60,182 nucleotides of DNA from contig JBGAGQ010000037.1 of the NCBI GenBank assembly GCA_044226625.1, forward strand, positions 1 through 60,182. The letters are read 5' to 3'. Below, in pieces: positions 5,861 through 60,182 of this stretch. The notes under the pieces were generated by a model. That model worked only from the letters and a program-made list of their open reading frames with translations, ran no database searches and was not told the DNA's origin. The position numbers were made by a program, and so were the translations under genes. The DNA is from Thermoanaerobaculia bacterium (lineage in GTDB: Bacteria; Acidobacteriota; Thermoanaerobaculia; Multivoradales; UBA5704). Every line of letters starts with the position of its first letter. Within the stretch, counting starts at the first letter, position 1.

Positions 5861-7051
5861 TCAGCCGGCCGCCCGCAGCGCTTCGATCCGCGACACCCGG
5901 CTCTTGGGGCTGTCGAGGCTGAACGAACGGGCGTCTTCGGGGTCGTTTCGAACGTAGCTCTCGGTCGCCGCGACCGCCTGTTCGAGCGCGGCGTTGCGCG
6001 GGACGAACGAGGTCCAGGCGATCGAGGCGCGGTCGACGTCGTACTCCCAAAGCCCGACGATCCGCCCGCGGTCGACGATCGCGTGATTCGGTAGGTCGGC
6101 GAGGCCTCCGAGCGGCTTCGAGTCCTTCTCGACGAAGACGCTCCGTTCCTTGTCCTCGTCGGCGATCAGGCTCGTGAGGTTGCGGCGCAGCAGGAACAGC
6201 GCGTCGAGCCCGCTCACGAGCGAGTATCGCGGCTCCGTAGGTGGTTTGAAAGCGAGCAGCGCGTCGCGATCCTCGGGGAGCAGCAAGCGCTCGTCGCCGG
6301 GGCCGAGGGGAACGAGCTCGAGCAGCTCGACGGCGGACTTCGCCGCCTTGACGCCCAGCCCCGAGAACCCCTGGAACTGCGCGAGCGTCGCGGGGCCGAT
6401 CCAGCGGAAATAGTTCGCCGCGATCTCCACGTACGCCTCCTCCAGCGTCAGCCGATAGCCCGCGAGGGGGTTCGGGTTCCAGAGGGCGTAGCGGTATCTC
6501 TGTTGATCGAGCCGCCCGTCGGTCGGAATCCGGCGGATCTCCCCCTCGGCTTGGAGCTTGCCGAGCGCGAGCGGCAGCGTCGTCGTGAGGCCCTTCTTCT
6601 TCCCTTCGGCTCCGAGGCTCCGAACCGCCCCGCCGGCCGCCGCGCGCAGCTCGTCCGTCCCAAGGGGGCCACCGGCGAGAGCCGCCACGACGGCGGTCGC
6701 CAGGCGATCGATCTCCTCGTCGGTCACGCCGATCTTCCGCGCGACCTTCATCTCCTGATCGTGGCCGAACCCCTGCCCGACCTTGAGTGCCAACGCGAAC
6801 TCGGGCGCCGGGACGACGTACGTGCAGCCCCGAGCGGACGGAAGTTCATGGATCTCCAGCCGCGCGACCGCGGCATCCGCCGCCGCGCGGCCGATCCCCG
6901 CCCGCGCATGGAGCGTGAGATAAGGCCCCACCCCACCGACCGACCGCGCCCACCCGGTCTGGGCGAGAACCTCCAAAGCCGATGCGTTCTTGAGAGCACC
7001 GTCGAGGCCTTGCCGATGCCACCACCAAGCGCGGAGTTTCGAGTCGTCCAT
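5861..7051 (-). CDS. HTH_42 (AlkZ/YcaQ-like) winged-helix protein, putative DNA crosslink glycosylase family
   Basis: RAWWWHRQGL, PYLTLHAR, YFRWIGPATLAQFQGFSGL, AIVDRGRIVGLWE match the family layout; 396 aa. Confidence 0.7.
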   Translation of the reverse strand: MDDSKLRAWWWHRQGLDGALKNASALEVLAQTGWARSVGGVGPYLTLHARAGIGRAAADAAVARLEIHELPSARGCTYVVPAPEFALALKVGQGFGHDQEMKVARKIGVTDEEIDRLATAVVAALAGGPLGTDELRAAAGGAVRSLGAEGKKKGLTTTLPLALGKLQAEGEIRRIPTDGRLDQQRYRYALWNPNPLAGYRLTLEEAYVEIAANYFRWIGPATLAQFQGFSGLGVKAAKSAVELLELVPLGPGDERLLLPEDRDALLAFKPPTEPRYSLVSGLDALFLLRRNLTSLIADEDKERSVFVEKDSKPLGGLADLPNHAIVDRGRIVGLWEYDVDRASIAWTSFVPRNAALEQAVAATESYVRNDPEDARSFSLDSPKSRVSRIEALRAAG

Positions 7052-7209
7052 GGGTCGGGGTTCCTCCGGGGCGAAGGATAGCCCAAGCGTCCCGGGCGTC
7101 GGCGCCGCGAGGGGGAGCCCCGAACCGAGGTCAAGCCGCCCTAACCCATGAGTCGGCGACCCGGCGCGGGATCGCGGAGCCCCCTCTCCCCGCCAAGCCC
7201 TTCGAGATC

Positions 7210-7234
7210 GGGGGAGGAGAGCGACTCCTCCCCC
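7210..7234 (-). terminator. GC-rich hairpin just downstream of the peptide gene
   Basis: GGGGGAGGAG-agcga-CTCCTCCCCC, perfect 10-bp stem; no clear U-tract. Confidence 0.5.
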
Positions 7235-7243
7235 ACACCGCCG

Positions 7244-7468
7244 CTACGCGCAGCAGATTTGGACGGAGCCGGTGCAGGTGTACTGGCAGGTGAACTCGCA
7301 GGTCCCGTTGCACGACCGCTGGCAGGTGAGCCACCAGGAGACCGGAATGATCGTCGCGTCCGCGTCCGCTTCGATCTCTGTCCCACCGCGCGCCGCGGCC
7401 ATCTGGGGGTGAGTCAACGAACCGAGGGTCTCTTTCGCCAGGTGCAGTTTGCGACGCTTCTTCTCCAC
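7244..7468 (-). CDS. RiPP precursor peptide (lanthipeptide-like), 74 aa
   Basis: GAGGAG SD + GTG; leader KKRRKLHLAKETL...ARGG (LxLxKxxL plus double-Gly); core with five (S/T)C repeats at period 4 and 7 Cys. Confidence 0.85.
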   Translation of the reverse strand: MEKKRRKLHLAKETLGSLTHPQMAAARGGTEIEADADATIIPVSWWLTCQRSCNGTCEFTCQYTCTGSVQICCA

Positions 7469-7567
7469 GAGTCTCTCCTCTTCCAGATCACCGGGGACGG
7501 TCCCGAGATCGAACCTCTTGGATTGCGGGTGCCAGATGCTTCGAGACGAAGGAAAGTGGATGCTCGA

Positions 7568-7596
7568 AGTTTAGGTCGGCCGGCCGGCCGGGGCAA
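7568..7596 (-). promoter_or_regulatory. Putative sigma70 promoter of the RiPP precursor gene
   Basis: Minus strand TTGCCC, 17 bp, TAAACT, about 100 nt upstream of the start. Confidence 0.6.
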
Positions 7597-7701
7597 GCGT
7601 GGACTCCCGAGCCGGACCGGCTACAGTGGTGCACGTCTTTTCCAGCCGACAATCTGTGGCCTCTGCAGCACGGATCGAAGCGCGCCGTCGCTCCCGTTTC
7701 C

Positions 7702-8541
7702 CTACAGATCCACCCGCCGCAGCCTCCGCAGCGCCCACAGCGGCGGTCCGACAATCCAGAACAGGAGCGAGGCCCCGAGGCAGATTCCGGCGCCGAGGGG
7801 TCCGTGGGTGAACCGCAGCAGGGCGAGCGATCCGGCGCCGAAGGCGGCGGTTCCTTCGATTCCGAGCATCGTGCCGGTGCGCACTACGTCGACCGGGTTG
7901 GCGAGCACGGTCGCGATCAGGACGCGCGAGGCGGAGAACGACGGGAGGAGGGACGCCACTCCTAAGGCCACGACGTCGATCAGGACGACCGCCGCGAACC
8001 AGACGACGAGGGCCAGGGCGAGCGCCCGCGACCTCTTGCGGCCGACCGCCGAGGCGGAGAGCAGGGCGGCCAAGCCGAGGAACACGGCGGTGAGGGCCAG
8101 CGAGCCGAGGAAGAGCAGGACGAACCCGCCCCAGCCTTGCCCTCCCGACTGGGCGAAGATCACGAGACCGGCGGCGCCGAAGCCGAGCGCCTGGGCGGCG
8201 GCGAGCGCCTCGAACAACCCGAGCAGCTTGCCGAACAGCAGCATGCCGCGGCCGATCGGCTGCGAGAAGAGGAGCTCCGCGGCGCCGCGCTCGGGCGCGA
8301 GCGACGTCACGCCGATCAGGAGCGAGGTGAGCGGCACGAGGAGGAGCACCAGGCGGACCAGCGACGAGGAGGTCCGCGCGAAATCCTGCATGCCGCTCCC
8401 CCCCGAGAGGACGTAGCCGGACGCCGCGACCGCCAAGGACAGGGCGGCGAAGACGATCGCGAACACCTGGGTCCATCGCGAGCGGAGCGCGAGCGTCAGT
8501 TCCAGGCGCGCGAAGAGCCCTAAGGATCGGCGATCGAACAT
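7702..8541 (-). CDS. nosY: ABC transporter permease NosY
   Basis: Multi-TM; LLVPLTSLLIG, ERGAAELLFSQPI, LANPVDVVR; in nos cluster. Confidence 0.92.
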   Translation of the reverse strand: MFDRRSLGLFARLELTLALRSRWTQVFAIVFAALSLAVAASGYVLSGGSGMQDFARTSSSLVRLVLLLVPLTSLLIGVTSLAPERGAAELLFSQPIGRGMLLFGKLLGLFEALAAAQALGFGAAGLVIFAQSGGQGWGGFVLLFLGSLALTAVFLGLAALLSASAVGRKRSRALALALVVWFAAVVLIDVVALGVASLLPSFSASRVLIATVLANPVDVVRTGTMLGIEGTAAFGAGSLALLRFTHGPLGAGICLGASLLFWIVGPPLWALRRLRRVDL

Positions 8542-8592
8542 CGGAGCCCTGCCTTTCTCGTCTCGAGGCGTGGACGGCAATCGGTCCTCGCC

Positions 8593-9063
8593 TCAGTTGC
8601 CGCCGGCGGGCGGCCCTTTCGGTCCGAACAGCTCGTGCATCTCGACCGGCACGCTCCCCTTCGCCTGGGGATCTTCGCGCCAGGCGAGGACGTTCCGGTG
8701 GGCGATCAGGCGCGACCCCATCGGCGTCTCGAGGCCGGTCGCGCGGTGATAGGTCGCCTGGTCGGCGCGGAGCCACTCCCCGCTCCGATGATCGGCGACG
8801 TAGGCGACCGCGCCGGACGGCAGGCTGGTCTGCGCCGCCAGATAGTCGCGCAGGCAGCCGATCTCGTCGAAGAACTTCGGCTCCTCGTTCGGCGCCACGA
8901 GCTGCGCCGCGAGCCTGTGGTCGGAGATCGCCATGCGGCACCAGGCACAGCTGTCGTTGTGGAGATCCAGGTCCTCCGGGGCCGGCATCCCTCCGGCGCA
9001 GCCGAGCGCCACGCACAGCGCGAGGAGCAGCGGACCGTGGACGACGTTTCGTTTGGGTTTCAT
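8593..9063 (-). CDS. nosL: Copper chaperone lipoprotein NosL
   Basis: Lipobox ALGC; CAWCRMAI, FDEIGCL, TPMGS. Confidence 0.92.
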   Translation of the reverse strand: MKPKRNVVHGPLLLALCVALGCAGGMPAPEDLDLHNDSCAWCRMAISDHRLAAQLVAPNEEPKFFDEIGCLRDYLAAQTSLPSGAVAYVADHRSGEWLRADQATYHRATGLETPMGSRLIAHRNVLAWREDPQAKGSVPVEMHELFGPKGPPAGGN

Positions 9064-10007
9064 GGAGTGTCCTCCTTCTGACGAACGATCTTCGACCCGG
9101 CTCCGCCGCGGTCCGCGAGCTCGACCAGCTCCAGATAGAGCTCGTCGAGCCGCCCTTCTTCGGCGGTGAGACCGCTGATCCGCGCTCCCGCCTCGCGCAC
9201 CAGGTCGAGTACCGTCGGACGCATCGCCGCGGGCCCGGGCACGCGAAGCTCGTCGTCCGACCAAGCCGCCTCGGGAGCGAGCCGACGGACCGCTTCGAGC
9301 AGCCCCGGCGGCCGGTTCTCGAAGCGGAGGCGCAGCACCCCGCGCGACGCGAGCCGGTCGGCGAGCTCGCGCTCGGAGAGCGTCGCCACGAGCCGCCCTT
9401 CGACCAGCACCATGAAGCGATCGGCCAGCCGCTCCACGTCGCCGAGGTGATGCGAGGTGAAGAGCACCGCCCGGCCCGCGCTGCGGCCGTCGCGGACCAG
9501 GTCGTAGAAAGCGGCGAGGCCGGAGGGATCGAGCGCCGCGGTCGGCTCGTCCAGCAACAGGACGGGCGCTTCGGGCAGCGCGGCGACCGCGAGGCCGAGG
9601 CGCTGCACCATGCCGCCGGAATACGTGCCCACCGCCCGAACCCCCGCGCCGTTGAGCGAGGCGAGGCGCAAGACCTCGTCGCTTCGCGCGGGTGGGGCGC
9701 CGCGGAGCGCGCGGAAGAACTCGACGACCTCGCGTCCCGAGAGCGCCTCGGGAAACGAGACCCGCTGCGGCAGGTACGAGAGGATGCGGCGCGCCGCGGG
9801 ATCGGACGCCGGCAAGGCGCCCTCTCCGAGGAGCACGCCGCCGGCGCTGGGATGAAGCAGACCCGCGGCGGCCTTGAGGCAGGTCGTCTTGCCCGAGCCG
9901 TTCGGTCCGAGCAGGGCGACCACCTCCCCCGCTTCGACTTCGAACGAGACGTCTTCGACCGCCAGGCGATCGCCGTAACGCTTGGTGAAGCGGTCGAAGC
10001 GGATCAT
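9060..10007 (-). CDS. nosF: ABC transporter ATPase NosF
   Basis: Walker A GPNGSGKT, signature YSGGMVQR, Walker B LLLDEP; ATGA overlaps at both ends. Confidence 0.92.
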   Translation of the reverse strand: MIRFDRFTKRYGDRLAVEDVSFEVEAGEVVALLGPNGSGKTTCLKAAAGLLHPSAGGVLLGEGALPASDPAARRILSYLPQRVSFPEALSGREVVEFFRALRGAPPARSDEVLRLASLNGAGVRAVGTYSGGMVQRLGLAVAALPEAPVLLLDEPTAALDPSGLAAFYDLVRDGRSAGRAVLFTSHHLGDVERLADRFMVLVEGRLVATLSERELADRLASRGVLRLRFENRPPGLLEAVRRLAPEAAWSDDELRVPGPAAMRPTVLDLVREAGARISGLTAEEGRLDELYLELVELADRGGAGSKIVRQKEDTP

Positions 10008-11407
10008 CGAGGTCCTTTCAAGCCACGCGAGAGGACGAGCGAGCCCAGGCTCACCGCGGCGAGCGAAACGGCGAGGCCCTTGGCGTCGGCGGTTCTCTCC
10101 CGCTCGTCGGGGCGCGGCACGCGCGGCAGCGACGGGGGGCGGGCGAGCGGATTGGGGTCCTCGACCGGCAGCGCCTCGAGCACCGGAAACGCCTCTTCGG
10201 CAAGCGCCAGCGCGGAGGCGGCGAAGCCCTCCGCCATCAAATCGGCGGCCGTGAGATTGCCGCGGAAGTGGTCGAAGACGTCGCTCAGGCGGTAGGGTCG
10301 ATCGCTCCGTCCGTCGCCGTCCAGATCGGGGACGCGATCGTCGGACCAGTAGTTCCCTTCGAACCGGGTATCGGTGCGCCGCCCGACCAGGTTGAGCGGC
10401 GAGAGGTTGCCGACGAACGAGTTGCCCAGGAACCGGTTGTCGCCGCACGAGTCGTAGAGCACGAGCGCGGCGTCCGACTCGGCGATGACGTTGCCGCGGA
10501 AGAGGTTGTGGTACGAGCCTTCGAGGAAGATTCCGCGGGCGTTGTCGGCGATCAGGTTGTCTTCGGCCACGATGTCGTCGCACGCCTTGAGCAGCAGGCC
10601 TACCGACGCGAAGCCGCGGTTGTGAAGGAAGCGGTTGCGCCGGAACACGATCCGCTTCGAGTACATGAGCGCCGTGCCCGCCGCGCCGTTTTCGAACGTG
10701 TTGTCCTCGAACAGGTTGTCGTCGGAGAACATGTAGTGCAGGCCGTACCGCAGGTCGCGCGCCGTGTTGCCGCGGATGACGCCGTGCGACGAAGACTGGA
10801 TGTAGACGCCGTCGCGCACGTCGACGATCACGTTGCCGGTGAGCTGGAAGCCCTGGGTGTTCCAGACGTGGAGGCCCGACCCCTTCTCCCCCGGCTCCTT
10901 GCCCGGAATGCCCTGCACCGTGGACCTCTCGACCACCGCGCCGTCCGCCTCGCGCAGGTAGATGCCGAACAGGCTGCCGGCGACCCGGCAGTCGCGGATC
11001 GTCGCCGCCTTGCCCGAGACGTGAATTCCGGAGGTGTCCCGCCCGAGATCGCCGCCGCCGCGGCCGTCGACGTCGAAACCCTCGACCGTGACCCGATCGG
11101 CGCGCACCCGTACCACGCTGCCCGAGCCCGAGCCGACCAGCCGCGGTCGCCCCTTGCCCACCAGCCGGAGCGGTCGGTCGATCACCAGATCGCCCCGGTA
11201 GATGCCAGCGGGCACGACCACCGTCGAGCCCGGCGGCGCGGCGTCGATCCGCGCCTGGAGCGGCGAGGCGTCGCGCGCGGCCGGCCGCCCTTCGAGCGTC
11301 GTCGCGGCCGGCATCGCGTCCGACGGCTCGGCGGCGCTTAGAGCACCAGCGCTCGTGGCGGTCCCCACGAACAGGACCAGCGCGAGGCCCCAGGCGGCCC
11401 GGCTCAT
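10004..11407 (-). CDS. nosD: NosZ maturation protein NosD (beta-helix)
   Basis: Signal peptide; VRDGVYI, LRYGLHYMFSDDN, ALMYSKR, GNYWSD...DLDGDG. Confidence 0.95.
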   Translation of the reverse strand: MSRAAWGLALVLFVGTATSAGALSAAEPSDAMPAATTLEGRPAARDASPLQARIDAAPPGSTVVVPAGIYRGDLVIDRPLRLVGKGRPRLVGSGSGSVVRVRADRVTVEGFDVDGRGGGDLGRDTSGIHVSGKAATIRDCRVAGSLFGIYLREADGAVVERSTVQGIPGKEPGEKGSGLHVWNTQGFQLTGNVIVDVRDGVYIQSSSHGVIRGNTARDLRYGLHYMFSDDNLFEDNTFENGAAGTALMYSKRIVFRRNRFLHNRGFASVGLLLKACDDIVAEDNLIADNARGIFLEGSYHNLFRGNVIAESDAALVLYDSCGDNRFLGNSFVGNLSPLNLVGRRTDTRFEGNYWSDDRVPDLDGDGRSDRPYRLSDVFDHFRGNLTAADLMAEGFAASALALAEEAFPVLEALPVEDPNPLARPPSLPRVPRPDERERTADAKGLAVSLAAVSLGSLVLSRGLKGPR

Positions 11408-12036
11408 CGCGGCTCCCAGCTCCTCGCGCCGCGCCAACCGAGCGCGAGCGCCGCAAAGAGCAGCAGGGCCACCGCCCCGAGACAGTACGAGGCGGCGGCG
11501 GGGTACGAATAGACCTGGAAGTTCGCGAGCTGCTTGAAGCCGAACAGCGGCGGCATGAACGGCGGCACTTTGACCGCCGCCGTGGGCAGCAGGTGATGCC
11601 CGTAGCTCCAGAGCTTGTGGGCGAACGACCAGAGCGAGAAACCCGCGAAGTAGACGTAGAGCACGACCACGTCGACCAGCTTGCCGAGCTCGCCATGGAC
11701 CGCGGCGCGCAGGAATAGCAGGCCGAGCCCGCCGATCGCGAGCGGCAGCCAATGGAACTCGGTGAAATCGTCGGCCGCGAGGTCGTGCATGCCGATGTAG
11801 TGGTTGAGGAGGTTGATTTCCTTCAGGTCCTGGCCGGCGTTGCCGCCGACCAGTTGGTAGCTGTAGATGTGGAGGCGCAACCCGTCCGGATACTGGGGCG
11901 CGAACATCGTCATGTCCCAGAGCGGCGCGAGATAGGCCGGGATGAGCAGCAGGGCCGCGAGCACAAGCAGCAGCCGCGGCGCGCCGCCGAGCGGCGCGTG
12001 CAGCAATTTCGTCTCTCGATCCAGCTTCGTGCCCAT
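11404..12036 (-). CDS. nosB: NosB-like membrane protein of clade II nos clusters
   Basis: APQYPDGL and INLLNHYIGM motifs, ~4 TM segments, directly after nosZ. Confidence 0.85.
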   Translation of the reverse strand: MGTKLDRETKLLHAPLGGAPRLLLVLAALLLIPAYLAPLWDMTMFAPQYPDGLRLHIYSYQLVGGNAGQDLKEINLLNHYIGMHDLAADDFTEFHWLPLAIGGLGLLFLRAAVHGELGKLVDVVVLYVYFAGFSLWSFAHKLWSYGHHLLPTAAVKVPPFMPPLFGFKQLANFQVYSYPAAASYCLGAVALLLFAALALGWRGARSWEPR

Positions 12037-12092
12037 GACAAACCTCGCTTCCGCTTTCCGGACGGGAGCGCTCCCGTCCTCCGTTCAGATCG

Positions 12093-13946
12093 TCAGTTCT
12101 CGACGATCAGGTAGCCCTGCATCTCCTGGTGGAGCGCCGAGCAGAAATTGGTGCAGTAGTAGGGGTAGACGCCCGGCTTGTCAGCCTTGAAGGTGAACGT
12201 CTTCGTCTCCCCCGGATCGACCACGATGTTGACGTTGTAGTCGAGCAGGCCGAAGCCGTGCAGCTCGTCCGTGGTCTGCTCGATGTTGGTGATCGCGACG
12301 GTGACCGTGTCCCCCTTCTTCACCGAGAACGAGGTCGGCGTGATCGTCGAGCGCACTTCGACGACCTTGACCGTGACGTGATCTCCCTGCCGCGTGACTC
12401 CCGCGTCCTTGACGTCCCAGGCCGCGAGCGGATGGTGGTTCTCTTCCTTCGGATAGACCTCGATCGGATGGAGCTTGTCCGCCTTGATCATCTGGGCGTA
12501 GTGCGGCTCGGGCTCGGTGAAGGCGTCGTAGAGCAGCTTCATCTTCTCGCCCGAGATGTCGACCAGCTCGGAGGATTCCGGCTGCGACGGGCCGACCGAG
12601 AGGTGCCGGCCGTGCGACAGCTTGTTCAGACCCACCAGGTACTCGCCCTTCGGATGCGCCGTGTCCCCTTCGGCGGCCGTGAGGTGGCCAATCGAATACG
12701 ACATCGGAACCTTGTCGACCACTTCCCAAGTGCCGAGCTTCCATTTCGCGATCGCGCTGTCGACGAACAGCGAGGTGTAGGCGAAACCGTCGGGACCGAA
12801 CTGGGTGTGCAGCGGACCGAGGCCGACCGGCACCTCGGCGTCCTTGATCGACTCGTACTTCAAGACCGGAATGCCGTCCTCGTCCCCGGTGAAGTCCTTG
12901 TTGCGGATCGCCGTCTGGATCTTCTCGAAGTTGAAGACCGTGGTGACGCCCTGGAGCTTGCCCGAGCCGACGACGTACTTGCCGTCCGGCGAGACGTCGA
13001 CGCCGTGGGGCGACTTGCCGCAGGGCAGCAGATAGACGAGCCCCGGGACCTTCGCCGGATCGATCACCTTGACGCCGCCGATCAGCTCGCCCGCCCCGGC
13101 GGCCGCCGCTTTCTCCGCGGCGCGCCAGTCGATCGCCGCGATGTAGTCGCGGTCGCGCTGGGTCGAGGTCGTCTCGAGCTTGCCCGTAGCGCGCTCGGTG
13201 TTGTACGAGGTCCAGAACATCCAGCCGTCGGAGGCGCCCTTGCCCGCGTCGCCGAGGTCGTAATCGAACGGCGGCATCAAGATTTCCCAACCGAGCGAGA
13301 GCTCGCCGCTCTTCGGTTCGATCTTGATCGCGGCGACGACCCCTTTATATTGCGTGCCGTAGCTGTCGACCGGCGCCACGGTCCCCTTGGGAATCGGGAT
13401 CGAAAAACGCGAGGCCATCATGCTGTACTCGCTGTTCGGCGTGACGAATGCGGACGCGTGGTTGCCCGAGACGTTCGGCACCGGGCCGAAGATCTGCTTG
13501 GTCTTGAAATCGCGCAGGTCGATGCGCGCCACCCGGCCGTTCATCTCGTTGACGAACAGCCAACGCCCGTCGTAGTCGCCGTTGGTCTCGGAGAGCGCCG
13601 GATGGTGGACGTCGCCCCAGGTCAGATTGCCGAGCATCTTCTTCGAGTCGTCGTCGAAGCCGTAGCCGGTCGCCGGGTACGGCGTGAACACCGGAATCGT
13701 CGAGATGTGCCGCATCGACGGCACGCCGTAGACGTAGACCTGGCCGGAATGGCCGCCCGAGGCGAAGAGGTAATACTGGTCGAGGTCACCGGGGGCGACG
13801 TAGGTCTTCTGCGCCGCGTACGCGACGTCGGAGACCGCGCGCCCGGGCTCGGCTCCTTTGGGCGCCTTCGGTGCGCATCCCCAGGCGATCGCGAACAACA
13901 GGGCGGCGGATGCGATCCCGCCCACGATCAGGTTCTTCTTGCTCAT
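12093..13946 (-). CDS. nosZ: Sec-dependent clade II nitrous oxide reductase
   Basis: CuZ His motifs DVHH, GNH, PHG, PLH, GHL, EPH; CuA HGF...CTNFCSALHQEM; no twin-Arg; 617 aa; GGAGGGAG SD. Confidence 0.98.
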   Translation of the reverse strand: MSKKNLIVGGIASAALLFAIAWGCAPKAPKGAEPGRAVSDVAYAAQKTYVAPGDLDQYYLFASGGHSGQVYVYGVPSMRHISTIPVFTPYPATGYGFDDDSKKMLGNLTWGDVHHPALSETNGDYDGRWLFVNEMNGRVARIDLRDFKTKQIFGPVPNVSGNHASAFVTPNSEYSMMASRFSIPIPKGTVAPVDSYGTQYKGVVAAIKIEPKSGELSLGWEILMPPFDYDLGDAGKGASDGWMFWTSYNTERATGKLETTSTQRDRDYIAAIDWRAAEKAAAAGAGELIGGVKVIDPAKVPGLVYLLPCGKSPHGVDVSPDGKYVVGSGKLQGVTTVFNFEKIQTAIRNKDFTGDEDGIPVLKYESIKDAEVPVGLGPLHTQFGPDGFAYTSLFVDSAIAKWKLGTWEVVDKVPMSYSIGHLTAAEGDTAHPKGEYLVGLNKLSHGRHLSVGPSQPESSELVDISGEKMKLLYDAFTEPEPHYAQMIKADKLHPIEVYPKEENHHPLAAWDVKDAGVTRQGDHVTVKVVEVRSTITPTSFSVKKGDTVTVAITNIEQTTDELHGFGLLDYNVNIVVDPGETKTFTFKADKPGVYPYYCTNFCSALHQEMQGYLIVEN

Positions 13947-13997
13947 TTCGTTCTCCCTCCCAGCGGTTGGTTCGCAGTACTCCGTCCGCACGCCGGG

Positions 13998-24958: not shown

Positions 24959-27900
24959 ATGACCACCTTCTCCGAATCCCTCGTCGAAGAGGCCGCCCTC
25001 GGCTGGCTCGCCGACCTGGGCTACACCGTCCTGCACGGAACCGAAATCTCCGTCGGCGCCCTCTACGCCGAGCGCCACGATGCCGCCTATCGCGACGTCC
25101 TCTTACTGGGCCGGCTGCGCGATGCCCTAGCCCGTCTCAATCCCGATCTTCCACCCGAGGCCCTCGACGACGCGTACCGCAAGCTCACCCTCTTGAGCGG
25201 GCCCTCTCTGATCGAACGCAACCGAGACCTGCATCGCCTGCTGGTCAATGGCGTCAACGTCGAATACCGCCGCCCGGACGGCTCGATCGGCGGCGGGCAG
25301 GCGCAGGTGCTCGACTTCGACGATGCGGAGCGAAACGACTGGCTCGCCGTGAACCAGTTCACCGTCTCAGAAACGCACCACACCCGCCGGCCCGACGTCG
25401 TCCTGTTCGTGAACGGCCTTCCCCTAGCCGTGATCGAGCTCAAGAACGCCGCCGACGAGAAAGCTACCGTCGCCTCCGCGATCCGGCAGCTCCAGACCTA
25501 CCAGGAACAGATCCCCTCCCTCTTCAACACGAACGCCCTCCTCGTCGCCTCCGACGGTACCCAGGCGCGCGTTGGCTCGCTCGGCGCCGGCCACGAATGG
25601 TTCAAGCCGTGGCGGACGATCGAGGGCCAAGGAGACGCGCCTTCGTCGATGTCCGAGCTGCACGTCCTCCTCGAAGGCGTCTTCGAAAAGCGGAGGTTCC
25701 TCGACCTCGTCCGCTACTTCGTCGTCTTCGAGGACGGAGGCACCGGAAAGCTCGCGAAGAAGGTCGCGGGCTATCACCAGTTCCACGCCGTCAACGTCGC
25801 CGTCGAAGAGACCCTGCGCGCGGCCGTCACTCAATCTCTCCCGTCGATGATCCGCGAGACGCCGGGCCGCTACGGCGCGGGCCCGGGACCGGGCGGTGAC
25901 CGGGGCGATCGGCGCGTCGGCGTCGTCTGGCACACCCAAGGATCCGGCAAGAGTCTCACCATGGCGTTTTACGCCGGGCGCGTGATCCTCCATCCGGCGA
26001 TGGAGAACCCGACGATCGTCGTGCTCACCGACCGCAACGACCTCGACGATCAACTGTTCGGCACCTTTGCCCGCTGCCGCGACCTGCTGCGCCAGCCGCC
26101 GGTCCAGGCCGCGGATCGCGCCGACTTGCGTGCCAAGCTCACGGTCGCCTCGGGCGGAGTGGTCTTCACCACGATCCAGAAGTTCTTCCCCGAAGAGAAA
26201 GGGGACCGCCACCCGATCCTCTCCGAGCGGCGAAACGTCGTCGTCATCGCCGACGAGGCCCACCGAAGCCAGTACGACTTCGTCGACGGGTTCGCCCGGC
26301 ACATGCGGGATGCGCTCCCCAACGCCTCGTTCGTCGGCTTCACCGGTACGCCGATCGAGAAGGCCGACGCCAACACCCGCGCCGTTTTCGGCGACTACAT
26401 CAGCATCTATGACATCCCCCGCGCCGTCGCCGACGGTGCCACGGTCCCGATTTACTACGAAAACCGCCTTGCCAAACTGGAGCTGCTCGAAAGCGAGAAG
26501 CCGAACATCGACCCCGACTTCGAGGAGGCGACCGAGGGCGAAGAGGTCGAGCGCAAAGAAAAGCTCAAGAGCAAGTGGGCGCAGCTCGAAGCCGTGGTCG
26601 GCGCCGACGCGCGGCTCGATCGCCTGGCGCGCGATCTCGTCGAGCACTACGAGCGCCGGTGCGAGGCGCTCGACGGCAAAGCGATGGTCGTCACCATGAG
26701 CCGGCGCATCGCCGTCGAGCTCTATCGGAAGCTCGTCGCCCTGCGACCGGAATGGCACGCGGACGGAGACGAGAGCGGCGCGCTCAAAGTGATCATGACC
26801 GGCTCGGCCTCCGACCCGCTCGAATGGCAGCCGCACATCCGCACCAAGGCGCGGCGCGAGGCGCTCGCGAAGCGCTTCCGCGATCCCGCCGATCCGTTCC
26901 GCATCGTGATCGTGCGCGACATGTGGCTTACCGGCTTCGACGCCCCGAGCCTCGCCACCCTGTACGCCGACAAGCCGATGCAGGGGCACGGCCTCATGCA
27001 GGCGATCGCGCGGGTCAACCGCGTCTTCAAAGACAAGCCGGGCGGCCTCGTCGTCGATTACCTGGGGCTCTCGAACGAGCTCAAAAAAGCGGTCGCCACT
27101 TACACCGAAGCGGGCGGCACCGGCCAGGCAAAGCACGATCAGGCCGACGCGGTCGCGGTGATGCTCGAAAAGTACGAGATCTGCCTCGGGCTGTTCCACG
27201 GCTTCGATTGGAGCGCGTGGCATACGGGCACGCCGCAGCAGCGCCTCTCGCTCCTCCCCGGGGCGCAGGAGCACGTGCTGGCGCTCGACGACGGCAAGAG
27301 CCGGATCCTGCGCGCCGTCGACGATCTGTCCAAGGCCTTCGCCCTCGCCGTGCCGCACGACGAGGCGCTGCGTATCCGCGACGACGTCGGCTTCTTCCAG
27401 GCCGTGCGGGCGGTGATCGCCAAACGCGCGCCGGGCGAACGGAAGTCCGACGAAGAGATCGAGCATGCGATCCGGCAGATCGTTTCCAAGGCCGTCGTTT
27501 CGGACGAAGTCGTCGACATATTCGCCGCCGCCGGCCTGAAGAAGCCCGATATCTCGATCCTCTCGGACGAGTTCCTCGCCGAGGTGCGCGACATGCCGCG
27601 GCGGAACCTGGCGGTCGAGCTGCTCCAGAAGCTCCTCAAAGGAGAGATCCGCACCCGTCAGCGGCGGAACGTCGTCCAGGCGCGCTCGTTCGCCGAGCTG
27701 CTCGAGCAGGCGATCCGCCGCTACCAGAACCGCGCGATCGAAGCGGCGAAGGTGATCGAAGAGCTGATCCAGATGGCGAAGGACCTGCGCGCCGCCGACG
27801 CTCGCGGCGAGACGCTCGGGCTCTCGGACGACGAGCTTGCCTTCTACGACGCGCTCGAAACGAACGACAGCGCGGTGCAAGTTCTCGGCGACGAGGCCCT

Positions 27901-28108
27901 CCGCGCGATCGCCCGCGAGCTGGTGGCGACCGTGCGCAAGAACGTCACCATCGACTGGACGATCCGCGACAACGTGCGCGCCCAGCTCCGCGTGCTGGTG
28001 AAGCGGATCCTGCGGAAGTACGGCTACCCGCCGGACAAACAGGAGAAAGCGACCCAGACCGTGCTCGAACAGGCGGAGGTCCTGTCGGAAGCTTGGACCG
28101 TCGCATAG
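24959..28108 (+). CDS. hsdR: Type I R-M restriction subunit
   Basis: RPD...IELK nuclease motif; HTQGSGKS; DEAH; FTGTP; MQAIARVNR. Confidence 0.97.
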
Positions 28109-39549: not shown

Positions 39550-58169
<18,620 letters not shown>

Positions 58170-58173
<4 letters not shown>

Positions 58174-60182
58174 CCCTGACCTCCCTGCTGTTTCTTCGCG
58201 CGCTTCTCGGCGAGCAGCTTGCGAATCGCGTCCGGCGTCATCGCGGCGAGCTCGGTGCGGAGCTTCTCGGCATCGCGCGGCGCGGGCGCGGCGGCGGCTT
58301 CGGCGCGACGCGGCGCGATCCGTTGCGCCTCCGCCTCGGCGCTCGGGCCCTTCGCCATCAGCTCGCCGACCGTCGCGGCGAGACGCTCGATCGTCGGCTC
58401 CTCGAACAGGGTGCGCATCGGCACCTCGAAGCCGAACGTCTCGCGCAGTCGGGCGAAAACCTGCGTGGCGAGGATCGAATTGCCGCCGAGGTCGAAGAAG
58501 CCGTCGCGCACGCCGACCTTCTCCACCCGCAACACCTCGATCCAGATCGCGGCGATCTTTTCCTCGAGCGGGGTGCGCGGCTCGACGAACTCCCGTCGCG
58601 AGCCTTCGCGCGTCCCGGCCGGCAACGGCAGCGCGCGAAGGTCGACCTTGCCGTGCGCGGTGAGCGGCAGCTCGGGCAAGAGCACCACCGCGGCGGGGAC
58701 CATGTACTCGGGAAGCTTGGCCCGGGCCGCGGCGCGCAGCGCGTCGGCGTTCGTGGCGCCGTCGTCGGAGACCACGTAGGCGACCAGCCGCTTGTCCCCC
58801 GCGACGTCCTCGCGCGGCACCACGATCGCGCGGCGCACGCCGGCCTCGGCGGCGAGCGTCGCCTCGATCTCCGCGAGCTCGATGCGGAAGCCACGGATCT
58901 TCACCTGATTGTCGATCCGACCCAGGTATTCGAGGTCGAAGCGGCCGCCGTCGCCGACCCGCCGCGCGAGATCGCCGGAGCGATAAGCGCGGGCGCCAGC
59001 GCGGCCGGAGAACGCGTCGGGTACGAAGCGCTCGGCCGAGAGCTCCGGCCGTCCGAGGTAGCCGACCGCCAGGCCGGAGCCCGCGACGATCATCTCTCCC
59101 GGCACGCCGAGCGGCGCCGGGATGCCGAACGCGTCGGTCACCTGGATCGCGAGATCGGGGATCGGCACACCGACCAGGCTCCCCCGCTTCGCGTCGACGT
59201 CCGCCTTCGAGATCGGCCGGTAGGTGACGTGCACGGTCGTCTCGGTGATGCCGTACATGTTGACCAGGCGCGGCCCCGCCACGTCCCCACCGCCCGAAAA
59301 CTCCGGATGGCGTTCGAACCAGGGCGCGAGCGCAGGCAGATCGAGCGCCTCACCGCCGAAGATCACGTAGCGCAGCGAAAGCGGCGCCGCCCCGTCGGCT
59401 TCGATCACGCCGCGCTCGGCCCAGACGAACTGCTGGAACGCCGACGGCGTCTGGTTGAGCACGGTCACCTTGCGGTCGCGGACCAGGCGATAGAACGTCT
59501 CCGGCGCGCGCGAGATCTCCGTCGGGACGACCTCCAGGAGGCCGCCGTAGGCGAACGCACCCCAGATCTCCCAGACCGAGAAGTCGAAGGCGTAGGAGTG
59601 GAAAAGCGTCCAGACGTCGTCGGGGCCGAATCCGAACCAGGCCTCGGTCGACGAGAGCAGACGCGCCACCTCGCCATGCCGCACCGGCACCCCCTTAGGT
59701 TTGCCGGTCGAGCCGGAGGTGTAGATCACGTAGGCGACGTCGCCCGCATCAACCTTCGGCAGCTCCGCCCCGTCGCCATTTCCGAGGTCGTGGTCCAGGT
59801 CCGCAAGCATGCCGGCGTCGATCGTCAGCCGCGCGCCGGAATCCTCGCGGAGCAGAGCTTTCCGATCCTCGGGATAGGTGGGATCGATCGGCACGTACCC
59901 CGCGCCGCTCTGGAGCACCGCGACGAGCGCGACCGGCAGGTCCAACGAGCGATCGAGCGAGACGGCGATGAGATCGCCGGGACGGACGCCGGAGCGGACC
60001 AGCCGGCGCGCGAGGGCTTTCGCGCGAGCGTCGAGCTCGGCATACGTCAAGACCTGGTCGCCCGCCCGCACCGCCTCGCGCGCGCCATGCGCCGCGGCGG
60101 AACGGCCGAACAGGTCGACCAGCGTCGGCATCGCCTTCGAATCGACGGCCGGAGGAAGAGCCGAGGCGGCGCGGATCTGCTC
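58170..60182 (-). CDS. Upstream NRPS, 3' part only: A(Thr)-T
   Basis: Frame open to the window edge (EQIRAASALPPAVDSKAMPTL...); code DFWNIGMVHK; T motif FFDLGGNS; stop overlaps TTG of the next NRPS. Confidence 0.95.

Follow-up and report, generated by a model that had tools for sequence, protein, structure and literature searches.

Class I lanthipeptide precursors with an LxLxKx5L leader motif and a Gly-Gly cleavage site have been reported from Bacteroidetes, whose clusters often include a C39 protease (Walker et al. 2020, PMC7268733, in the portion of that report available to us). Lanthipeptide enzymes that act on many substrates have so far been of class II, namely ProcM and SyncM, with up to 79 precursors for one enzyme, according to the available text of PMC12328550. 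For Thermoanaerobaculia, the sections of PMC13083261 at hand describe ThaA/ThaM/ThaO and TheA/TheO as class II systems with clustered genes and a thiazole at a Gly-Cys motif.

The locus described here, from a genome of the same bacterial class as ThaA and TheA, has features of each of these systems. It shares with the Bacteroidetes-type class I precursors of model NF038153 the leader motif, the Gly-Gly end, a core rich in Ser/Thr and Cys, the LanB and LanC partners and the C39 protease, and differs from them in its Acidobacteriota host, its unclustered genes, the number of precursors (at least 56 in the genome) and its periodic ladder core. As with the prochlorosins of ProcM, and with SyncM, one enzyme set would face many dispersed precursors with conserved leaders and diverse cores; unlike the prochlorosins, the present system has separate LanB and LanC proteins with no LanM found, an NF038153 leader and not one of the Nif11/NHLP type, and a host of a different phylum. 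The enzymes resemble the nisin type (NisB/NisC): LanB is full-length and has both the glutamylation and the elimination domain, and LanC carries the His/Cys/Cys-His motifs. However, the LanB of this genome is nearer to 9g04 (1.8e-52) and 5ehk (1.4e-51) than to NisB 4wd9 (2.6e-22). The nisin leader has an FNLD box and a LanP site, whereas here the leader ends in Gly-Gly and the genes are unclustered. The peptide also resembles ThaA and TheA as a Cys-rich lanthipeptide-type precursor, but is assigned to class I, lies outside any cluster and has a core without the Gly-Cys motif. Finally, a Cys at each fourth residue recalls the Cxxx-repeat targets of radical SAM enzymes (TIGR04114/TIGR04115), but the peptide scores only 11.1 bits with TIGR04114, below the cut-off of 20, and no TIGR04115 maturase was found in the genome.

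The peptide belongs to a known, curated kind. Measured against what the available parts of these reports describe, what appears new is the host phylum for a class I system with the NF038153 leader, the complete lack of linkage between LanB, LanC, exporter and precursors, and the scale, at 56 or more precursors to a single LanB, together with the periodic ladder core. In the literature surveyed, we found no description of class I expansions of such kind in Acidobacteriota, although the supplementary precursor lists of PMC7268733 may hold relatives.

A conserved gene with a Ser/Thr-Cys ladder

The gene lies in the window, by which we mean the whole stretch of DNA that was analysed, that is, the entire contig C26 of 60 kb (60,182 nt). 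Translated from 7468 to 7244 on the minus strand, it gives a peptide of 74 residues, MEKKRRKLHLAKETLGSLTHPQMAAARGGTEIEADADATIIPVSWWLTCQRSCNGTCEFTCQYTCTGSVQICCA. The locus has the following features.

7244..7468, minus strand: putative precursor gene (lanA-type) of 74 codons and a TAG stop, with a GTG start, from the ORF listing
7382..7468, minus strand: leader peptide, residues 1-29, from the NF038153 match and orthologue conservation
7331..7381, minus strand: acidic variable linker, core residues 1-17, TEIEADADATIIPVSWW, from the orthologue alignment
7247..7339, minus strand: Ser/Thr-Cys ladder and CCA tail, core residues 15-45, with positions checked by script
7473..7480, minus strand: ribosome-binding site, GAGGAGAG, 4 nt ahead of the GTG and kept in three orthologous loci
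7469..7600, minus strand: conserved upstream stretch of about 130 nt, from a DNA alignment with orthologous loci
7209..7235, minus strand: stem-loop of 11 pairs with a 5-nt loop, 9 nt past the stop codon, from folding

The open reading frame is a genuine conserved gene. In a collection of 5.8 billion proteins we identified seven orthologous protein clusters with 69-87% identity, two of which have source labels of Acidobacteriota or Thermoanaerobaculia MAG proteins, and the orthologue records carry the MAG labels Holophagales, Thermoanaerobaculia and Acidobacteriota. An orthologue is present in three of the seven same-genus genomes. Six pairwise comparisons, with the orthologues from G001, G004 and G007, gave dN/dS values of 0.09-0.21, and within the ladder the orthologues differ pairwise by 0-4 nonsynonymous and 2-9 synonymous changes. 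Near-identical pieces of the gene were also found on contigs of three public DNA runs from two studies (X2, X3 and X4), where record 13 of X4 covers 7231-7472 with one difference from the window. Assembly of the reads of four DNA runs gave short contigs, none of which covers the entire stretch, and parts of it are uncovered.

The leader consists of a K/R-rich start, the segment L8-x-L10-x-K12-E-T-L-x-x-L18 and a terminal ARGG (residues 26-29), so that L8, L10, K12, L18 and G28-G29 satisfy the LxLxKx5L motif with its Gly-Gly site. The original prediction of a lanthipeptide-type leader agrees with the curated class I leader model NF038153 (lant_leader_L1a), which matches residues 1-29 with 23.2 bits and E 5.6e-5, a small margin over the cut-off of 22. 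The copy of Pfam-A that was used has no match to the peptide, and in a protein atlas the best cluster (score 0.86) carries PF28317 (Lant_leader_dom), which serves as a lead only. Among 11 orthologous sequences the leader is invariant at 23 of 29 residues, including 2-3, 5-16, M23 and 25-29, with near-invariance at residues 4 and 17 and variation at 19-22 and 24.

In the core, which has 45 residues, Ser/Thr are found at positions 1, 10, 15, 19, 23, 27, 31, 35, 37 and 39, and Cys at 20, 24, 28, 32, 36, 43 and 44. A script confirmed the exact period of 4 of the Ser/Thr from 15 to 39, the seven Cys positions, the ARGG and the core length, all as first proposed; the earlier list of Ser/Thr was right for this series and left out those at 1, 10 and 37. 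With 10 Ser/Thr and 7 Cys, there are enough Ser/Thr to pair each Cys. In the alignment of the 11 sequences, the acidic linker is the only part that has both indels and substitutions; all seven Cys are invariant and the ladder Ser/Thr are always Ser or Thr, the sole change being Thr to Ser in the last TC unit of P0007. None of 200,000 composition-preserving shuffles of the core produced a run of five [ST]C units at period 4 (the best had four units, seen six times), and the same was true of 200,000 shuffles of its 27 C-terminal residues.

The gene has its own translation signal, the strong ribosome-binding site GAGGAGAG, as had been anticipated from the sequence of the window. The expected downstream hairpin was likewise recovered as the 11-pair stem at 7209-7235: a 61-nt hairpin fold has an energy of -34 kcal/mol (z -2.69; 3 of 200 shuffles fold equally well), and the structure resembles a terminator without a T-run. 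A terminator scan called no terminator here. At the same place the orthologues have a differing sequence that is also an inverted repeat. The proposed promoter, in contrast, could not be confirmed, as a scan of 6900-7900 for the sigma-70 consensus gave no site. The conserved stretch at 7469..7600 would comprise the 5' untranslated region and probably the promoter; it has no Rfam match, and its predicted fold is no more stable than those of shuffled sequences (z +1.30). Within the genome, the 152 nt ahead of the gene occur once, and the 200 nt upstream of 55 precursors (see below) hold no shared regulatory motif beyond the multiple-testing expectation (best 6-mer p 7.5e-5).

By tblastx, homology to the orthologous loci is limited to about 7150-7590, which comprises the gene, about 130 nt upstream and the hairpin region, and the flanks differ, which indicates that the gene is a self-contained module. 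Upstream, 233 nt separate it from the gene of a NosY-like permease, with which a nos gene group ends. Since the AlkZ-like and NosY-like neighbours are absent beside the orthologues, the position at the end of this group looks incidental. The nitrous-oxide reductase gene group itself spans 7702-13991 on the minus strand, directly upstream of the peptide gene and on the same strand, and includes the following genes.

12093-13991, minus strand: NosZ-like protein
10004-11752, minus strand: NosD
8593-9264, minus strand: NosL
7702-8580, minus strand: NosY-like ABC-2 permease

Elsewhere in the window, 39550-58173 (minus strand) encodes a non-ribosomal peptide synthetase of 6207 residues, with 6 condensation, 4 adenylation and 4 carrier stretches in its first 5000 residues. 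It is preceded by an adenylation-carrier protein (58170-60131, minus strand) that reaches the contig end. A type I restriction enzyme R subunit of 1049 residues is encoded at 24959-28108 (plus strand).

Sister precursors, modifying enzymes and exporter

The assembly has 6.6 Mb in 133 contigs and is 97.9% complete, with an estimated contamination of 5.5%. A genome search for the leader, as the original prediction had called for, revealed at least 56 sister precursors on 32 or more contigs. At E up to 10, NF038153 matched 41 places, of which two lie in NRPS genes and are false hits. A leader profile was built from 38 of the NF038153 places and searched against 93,636 frames of at least 30 residues, which gave 52 frames at E up to 0.001; the seed sequences match their own profile by construction, and 14 of the 52 are non-seed. 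The 55 precursors analysed below, on 32 contigs, are these 52 and three weaker, typical frames added by eye, and an evident member outside the threshold (C106:3813-4076, E 0.0014) was left out of the 55.

The leaders of the 55 precursors are conserved, with L at position 0 in 52, L at +2 in 55, E at +5 in 51, T at +6 in 54 and L at +10 in 52, and the mean pairwise identity is 0.46 in a 17-residue leader window compared with 0.33 in the cores (gapped, per shorter sequence). The cores are diverse, with a median of 32 residues and 6 Cys, and in all 55 the number of Ser and Thr is at least that of Cys. By eye, and with no control set, a motif of the GGAG/GAGG/AGGA type is seen close to the start in all 55 upstream stretches. 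Only three of the 55 lie beside a LanC gene, and the other 52 have no adjoining enzyme gene. The precursors show no enrichment at contig ends (23 of 55 within 10 kb of an end, with 19 expected; 303 of 2000 simulations reached the observed number).

Ladders are found in a minority of these cores, with at least two units in 13 of 55 and at least three in 7 of 55, and the peptide at 7244..7468 has the longest run among the precursors with an intact leader. A second ladder copy was observed on C81 (L031, about 55560-55759, plus strand), additional to the 56 or more sisters. Its Cys ladder is longer than that of the peptide at 7244..7468 and its C-terminal module is the same, but all frames lack a canonical K-rich LxLxKETL leader. 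Since the metagenomic protein P0009 is its counterpart with an intact leader, the C81 copy looks decayed at its 5' end. Searching 1.84 billion representatives with a profile of the orthologue alignment gave no more than eight proteins at E up to 0.001. Among these, P0008 has a canonical leader and a longer ladder, and both P0008 and P0009 end in the same module as the peptide studied here; P0010, of 1345 residues, is an unrelated repeat protein and was rejected. The ladder subfamily is thus rare in current data, with a count that is a lower bound, as small genes are often uncalled in metagenomes.

The absence of a modifying enzyme from the window, as originally noted, holds for the nine families and profiles that were searched genome-wide: PF04738, PF05147, PF13575, TIGR03897, NF038151, PF13186, PF02624, PF03412 and TIGR04115 have no match on C26. 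The description of the precursor as an orphan is correct for the contig and not for the genome, in which LanB, LanC, an exporter and the sister precursors are encoded elsewhere. The genome has one full-length LanB, of 1123 residues (PF04738, 1.7e-171; PF14028, 1.1e-67), on contig C93, flanked by transport and glycine-cleavage genes. Two LanC proteins were identified (PF05147, 5.4e-43 and 3.6e-41). The gene for LanC1, on C4, has three precursors ahead of it and a metallo-beta-lactamase-fold protein after it, and that for LanC2, on C114, lies among housekeeping genes. Both proteins retain the HG..G, WCYG and CHG motifs, aligned to the corresponding stretches of NisC, which are presumably the zinc and acid/base residues. 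An exporter of 787 residues, which combines a C39 peptidase, an ABC membrane domain and an ABC ATPase, is encoded on C93, 43 kb from LanB, and is adjoined by an HlyD-like protein.

Profile searches of the genome detected neither LanM nor LanKC, nor a radical SAM maturase of the Cxxx-repeat type; for PF13575 (LanM) the positive control likewise had no match, and TIGR03897 matched only the cyclase part of the two LanC proteins, below its cut-off. This points to class I and not to the class II type of ProcM. The analogy to ProcM in the original prediction thus holds as regards dispersed precursors served in trans, and needs to be changed as regards the enzymes, which are of class I.

Several other genes were also noted. 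The metallo-beta-lactamase-fold protein after LanC1 (C4, L013:10956-11825, plus strand) is matched best by YtnP-type quorum-quenching lactonases, though its 193.8 bits fall short of the cut-off of 425. Four genes in the genome encode SPASM domains; one of these, a radical SAM/SPASM protein (C17, L029:4223-5590, plus strand), lies 343 nt upstream of the sister precursor C17:5591-5983, an arrangement that may be coincidental or may mark a second tailoring route. The single YcaO of the genome, of 414 residues, is encoded on C5, near none of the 55 precursors, in a candidate peptide-modification cluster (L050:6593-15637, minus strand) with a TfuA-related protein, a TOMM-type kinase/cyclase fusion, a Ser/Thr kinase and two small ORFs of 79 and 88 residues that have an AAIIM motif in common.

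The leader and class I enzymes across genomes

The occurrence of leader and enzymes was compared in 41 genomes, the present one and 40 relatives, at a leader threshold of E up to 0.1. The leader is present in 23 of the 41, of which 15 have 10-40 matches. All 23 leader-bearing genomes have matches to PF04738 and PF05147, and the leader was found in none of the ten genomes without PF04738, in a set of related genomes that are not independent samples. In two genomes (G015 and G029) a strong LanB is unaccompanied by any match to the leader, and in G022, with 15 leader matches, the LanB matches are fragmentary only. LanB matches split over at least two frames were observed in G018 (C13:217907-219915; 38 leader matches) and in G022 (C3:1392860-1394854), which may reflect a frameshift, an assembly error or gene decay.

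In several relatives the same leader is found next to the enzymes. Compact LanA(1-6)-LanC-LanB clusters are present in G027 (two clusters, one with six precursors), G024 and G030, and in G016 LanA and LanB on the minus strand and LanC on the plus strand lie within about 7 kb. The clustered LanB proteins of the relatives are 44-55% identical to the LanB of this genome, and their LanC proteins are 42-48% identical to LanC2. In 201 genomes sampled evenly from the phylum, the leader (E up to 0.01) was found in 10, including one match in the unpublished genome G189, and more than four matches were seen only in the present genome and in G025. Large dispersed precursor expansions therefore seem confined to the host order.

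These findings make it probable that the peptide is a class I lanthipeptide precursor (LanA) served in trans, which resembles the prochlorosins in organisation and uses class I enzymes. The suggestion of an enzyme acting in trans is supported by the single LanB, the two LanC proteins and the C39-ABC exporter on other contigs, as well as by the sister precursors. Counting against it, there is no enzyme gene within the 60-kb contig. The gene cluster by which a class I LanA would be recognised is missing here, and is present for the same leader type in G027, G024, G030 and G016. The precursor and the enzymes are linked by binning only, but a binning artefact is made less likely by the same pattern, with both LanB and LanC, in all seven genomes of the genus.

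Based on what is known of these families, the pathway would proceed as follows. The ribosome would make the 74-residue peptide, with a 29-residue leader of the form K-K-x-K-K-L-x-L-x-[K/R]-E-T-L-x-x-L and a Gly-Gly end. The leader would recruit the only LanB of the genome (C93), by which core Ser/Thr would be converted to dehydroalanine or dehydrobutyrine, and the LanC on C4, that on C114 or both would then join the seven Cys thiols to the dehydro residues, giving (methyl)lanthionine rings. According to PMC9576775, class I dehydratases taken from other phyla frequently depend on the tRNA-Glu and glutamyl-tRNA synthetase of their own organism. Cleavage after ARGG and export of the product would be carried out by the C39-peptidase ABC exporter with its HlyD-like partner (C93). 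One enzyme set would in this manner serve at least 56 dispersed precursors that share the leader and have very different cores.

A Gly-Gly leader and a C39-ABC exporter are also all that is needed by a Cys-rich double-glycine peptide, such as a bacteriocin or a signal, that is exported by this transporter unmodified or only disulfide-bonded. The Cys-rich core and the absence of LanB and LanC genes nearby would suit such a peptide, and the seven Cys could be present as disulfides. We consider this unlikely given the co-occurrence, as the leader is seen only in genomes with LanB and LanC (23 of 23, and 0 of 10 without LanB), the clustering of the leader with LanB/LanC in four relatives, and the ladder Ser/Thr, which are kept across the orthologues with all but one position unchanged and which disulfides do not explain. 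The odd number of Cys (7), and the numbers of Ser and Thr, which equal or exceed those of Cys in all 55 sisters, also argue against it.

It is similarly improbable that the ladder is the target of another enzyme class, either a radical SAM enzyme of the Cxxx-repeat/SPASM kind or a thiazole-forming enzyme, instead of or on top of LanB/LanC. The weak resemblance to TIGR04114 (E 0.44, 11.1 bits, below the cut-off of 20) and the four SPASM-domain genes, one of them upstream of the C17 sister, would agree with this, as would the class II lanthipeptide of Thermoanaerobaculia that, according to the available text of PMC13083261, receives a thiazole through a GMC oxidoreductase. However, no TIGR04115 match was found in the genome, the C17 radical SAM protein scores best with the heme-synthesis enzymes AhbD and NirJ2, below their cut-offs, the single YcaO is part of a separate YcaO-TfuA cluster that has small ORFs of its own, and the core lacks the Gly-Cys motif of the GMC-modified kind.

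The gene could in principle also be a relic of an ancestral cluster, that is, a conserved small gene whose product is unprocessed or acts as a decoy or regulator. It is unlinked from all the enzymes, and the loss of the canonical leader in the C81 ladder copy indicates that decay happens. We regard this as very unlikely in view of the purifying selection on leader and ladder, the intact translation signals, and the intact LanB, LanC and exporter, of which LanB and LanC are intact in all seven same-genus genomes. That the frame arose by chance is hardly credible: at 67.7% GC, long spurious frames are common in this genome and many ORFs overlap, but the selection analysis (dN/dS 0.09-0.21) rejects such an origin, and the unlinked contexts of the orthologues, the ribosome-binding site and the match to a curated leader model also oppose it.

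Possible ring topology and implications

If the peptide is modified as a class I LanA, its ladder suggests a possible arrangement of rings. We tentatively propose, as one option among others and from spacing statistics only, staggered and overlapping rings that run from a dehydro residue i to the Cys at i+5, pairing S15-C20, T19-C24, S23-C28, T27-C32 and T31-C36, with two closing rings onto C43 and C44 after the five staggered ones. Three clues favour this scheme. The last Cys is at the C-terminus or one residue from it in 36 of the 55 cores, so that the closing rings, if no others, must have their dehydro residue upstream of the Cys. Ser/Thr before the first Cys are commonest at -5 (25 of 55, compared with 9-19 at each of -1 to -4 and -6), and in all 11 orthologous sequences a Ser or Thr stands at core position 15, which precedes the first ladder Cys by five residues and has variable neighbours. 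Consecutive rings from Cys(i) to Ser/Thr(i+3) would fit equally well as far as spacing goes. To our knowledge, a 'thioether zipper' of staggered i to i+5 rings is not found in any characterised lanthipeptide.

The most far-reaching form of the proposal joins both aspects, namely a class I counterpart of the prochlorosins in a clade of Acidobacteriota, with one LanB, two LanC and one exporter, all unlinked, and more than 50 rapidly diversifying precursors, in which the ladder forms five to seven staggered i to i+5 rings. In this combined form the proposal is speculative and probably wrong in some part.

The system bears on how such peptides are found, since cluster-based genome mining misses most precursors of this type, 52 of 55 being without an enzyme gene alongside. 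On the ladder core one could study how a cyclase selects its partners when many pairs of Cys and dehydro residues are equivalent, and substrate-tolerant lanthipeptide enzymes are tools for libraries of cyclic peptides. If the present reading is true, a LanB/LanC pair that serves at least 50 unlike cores would be the class I equivalent of ProcM and SyncM.
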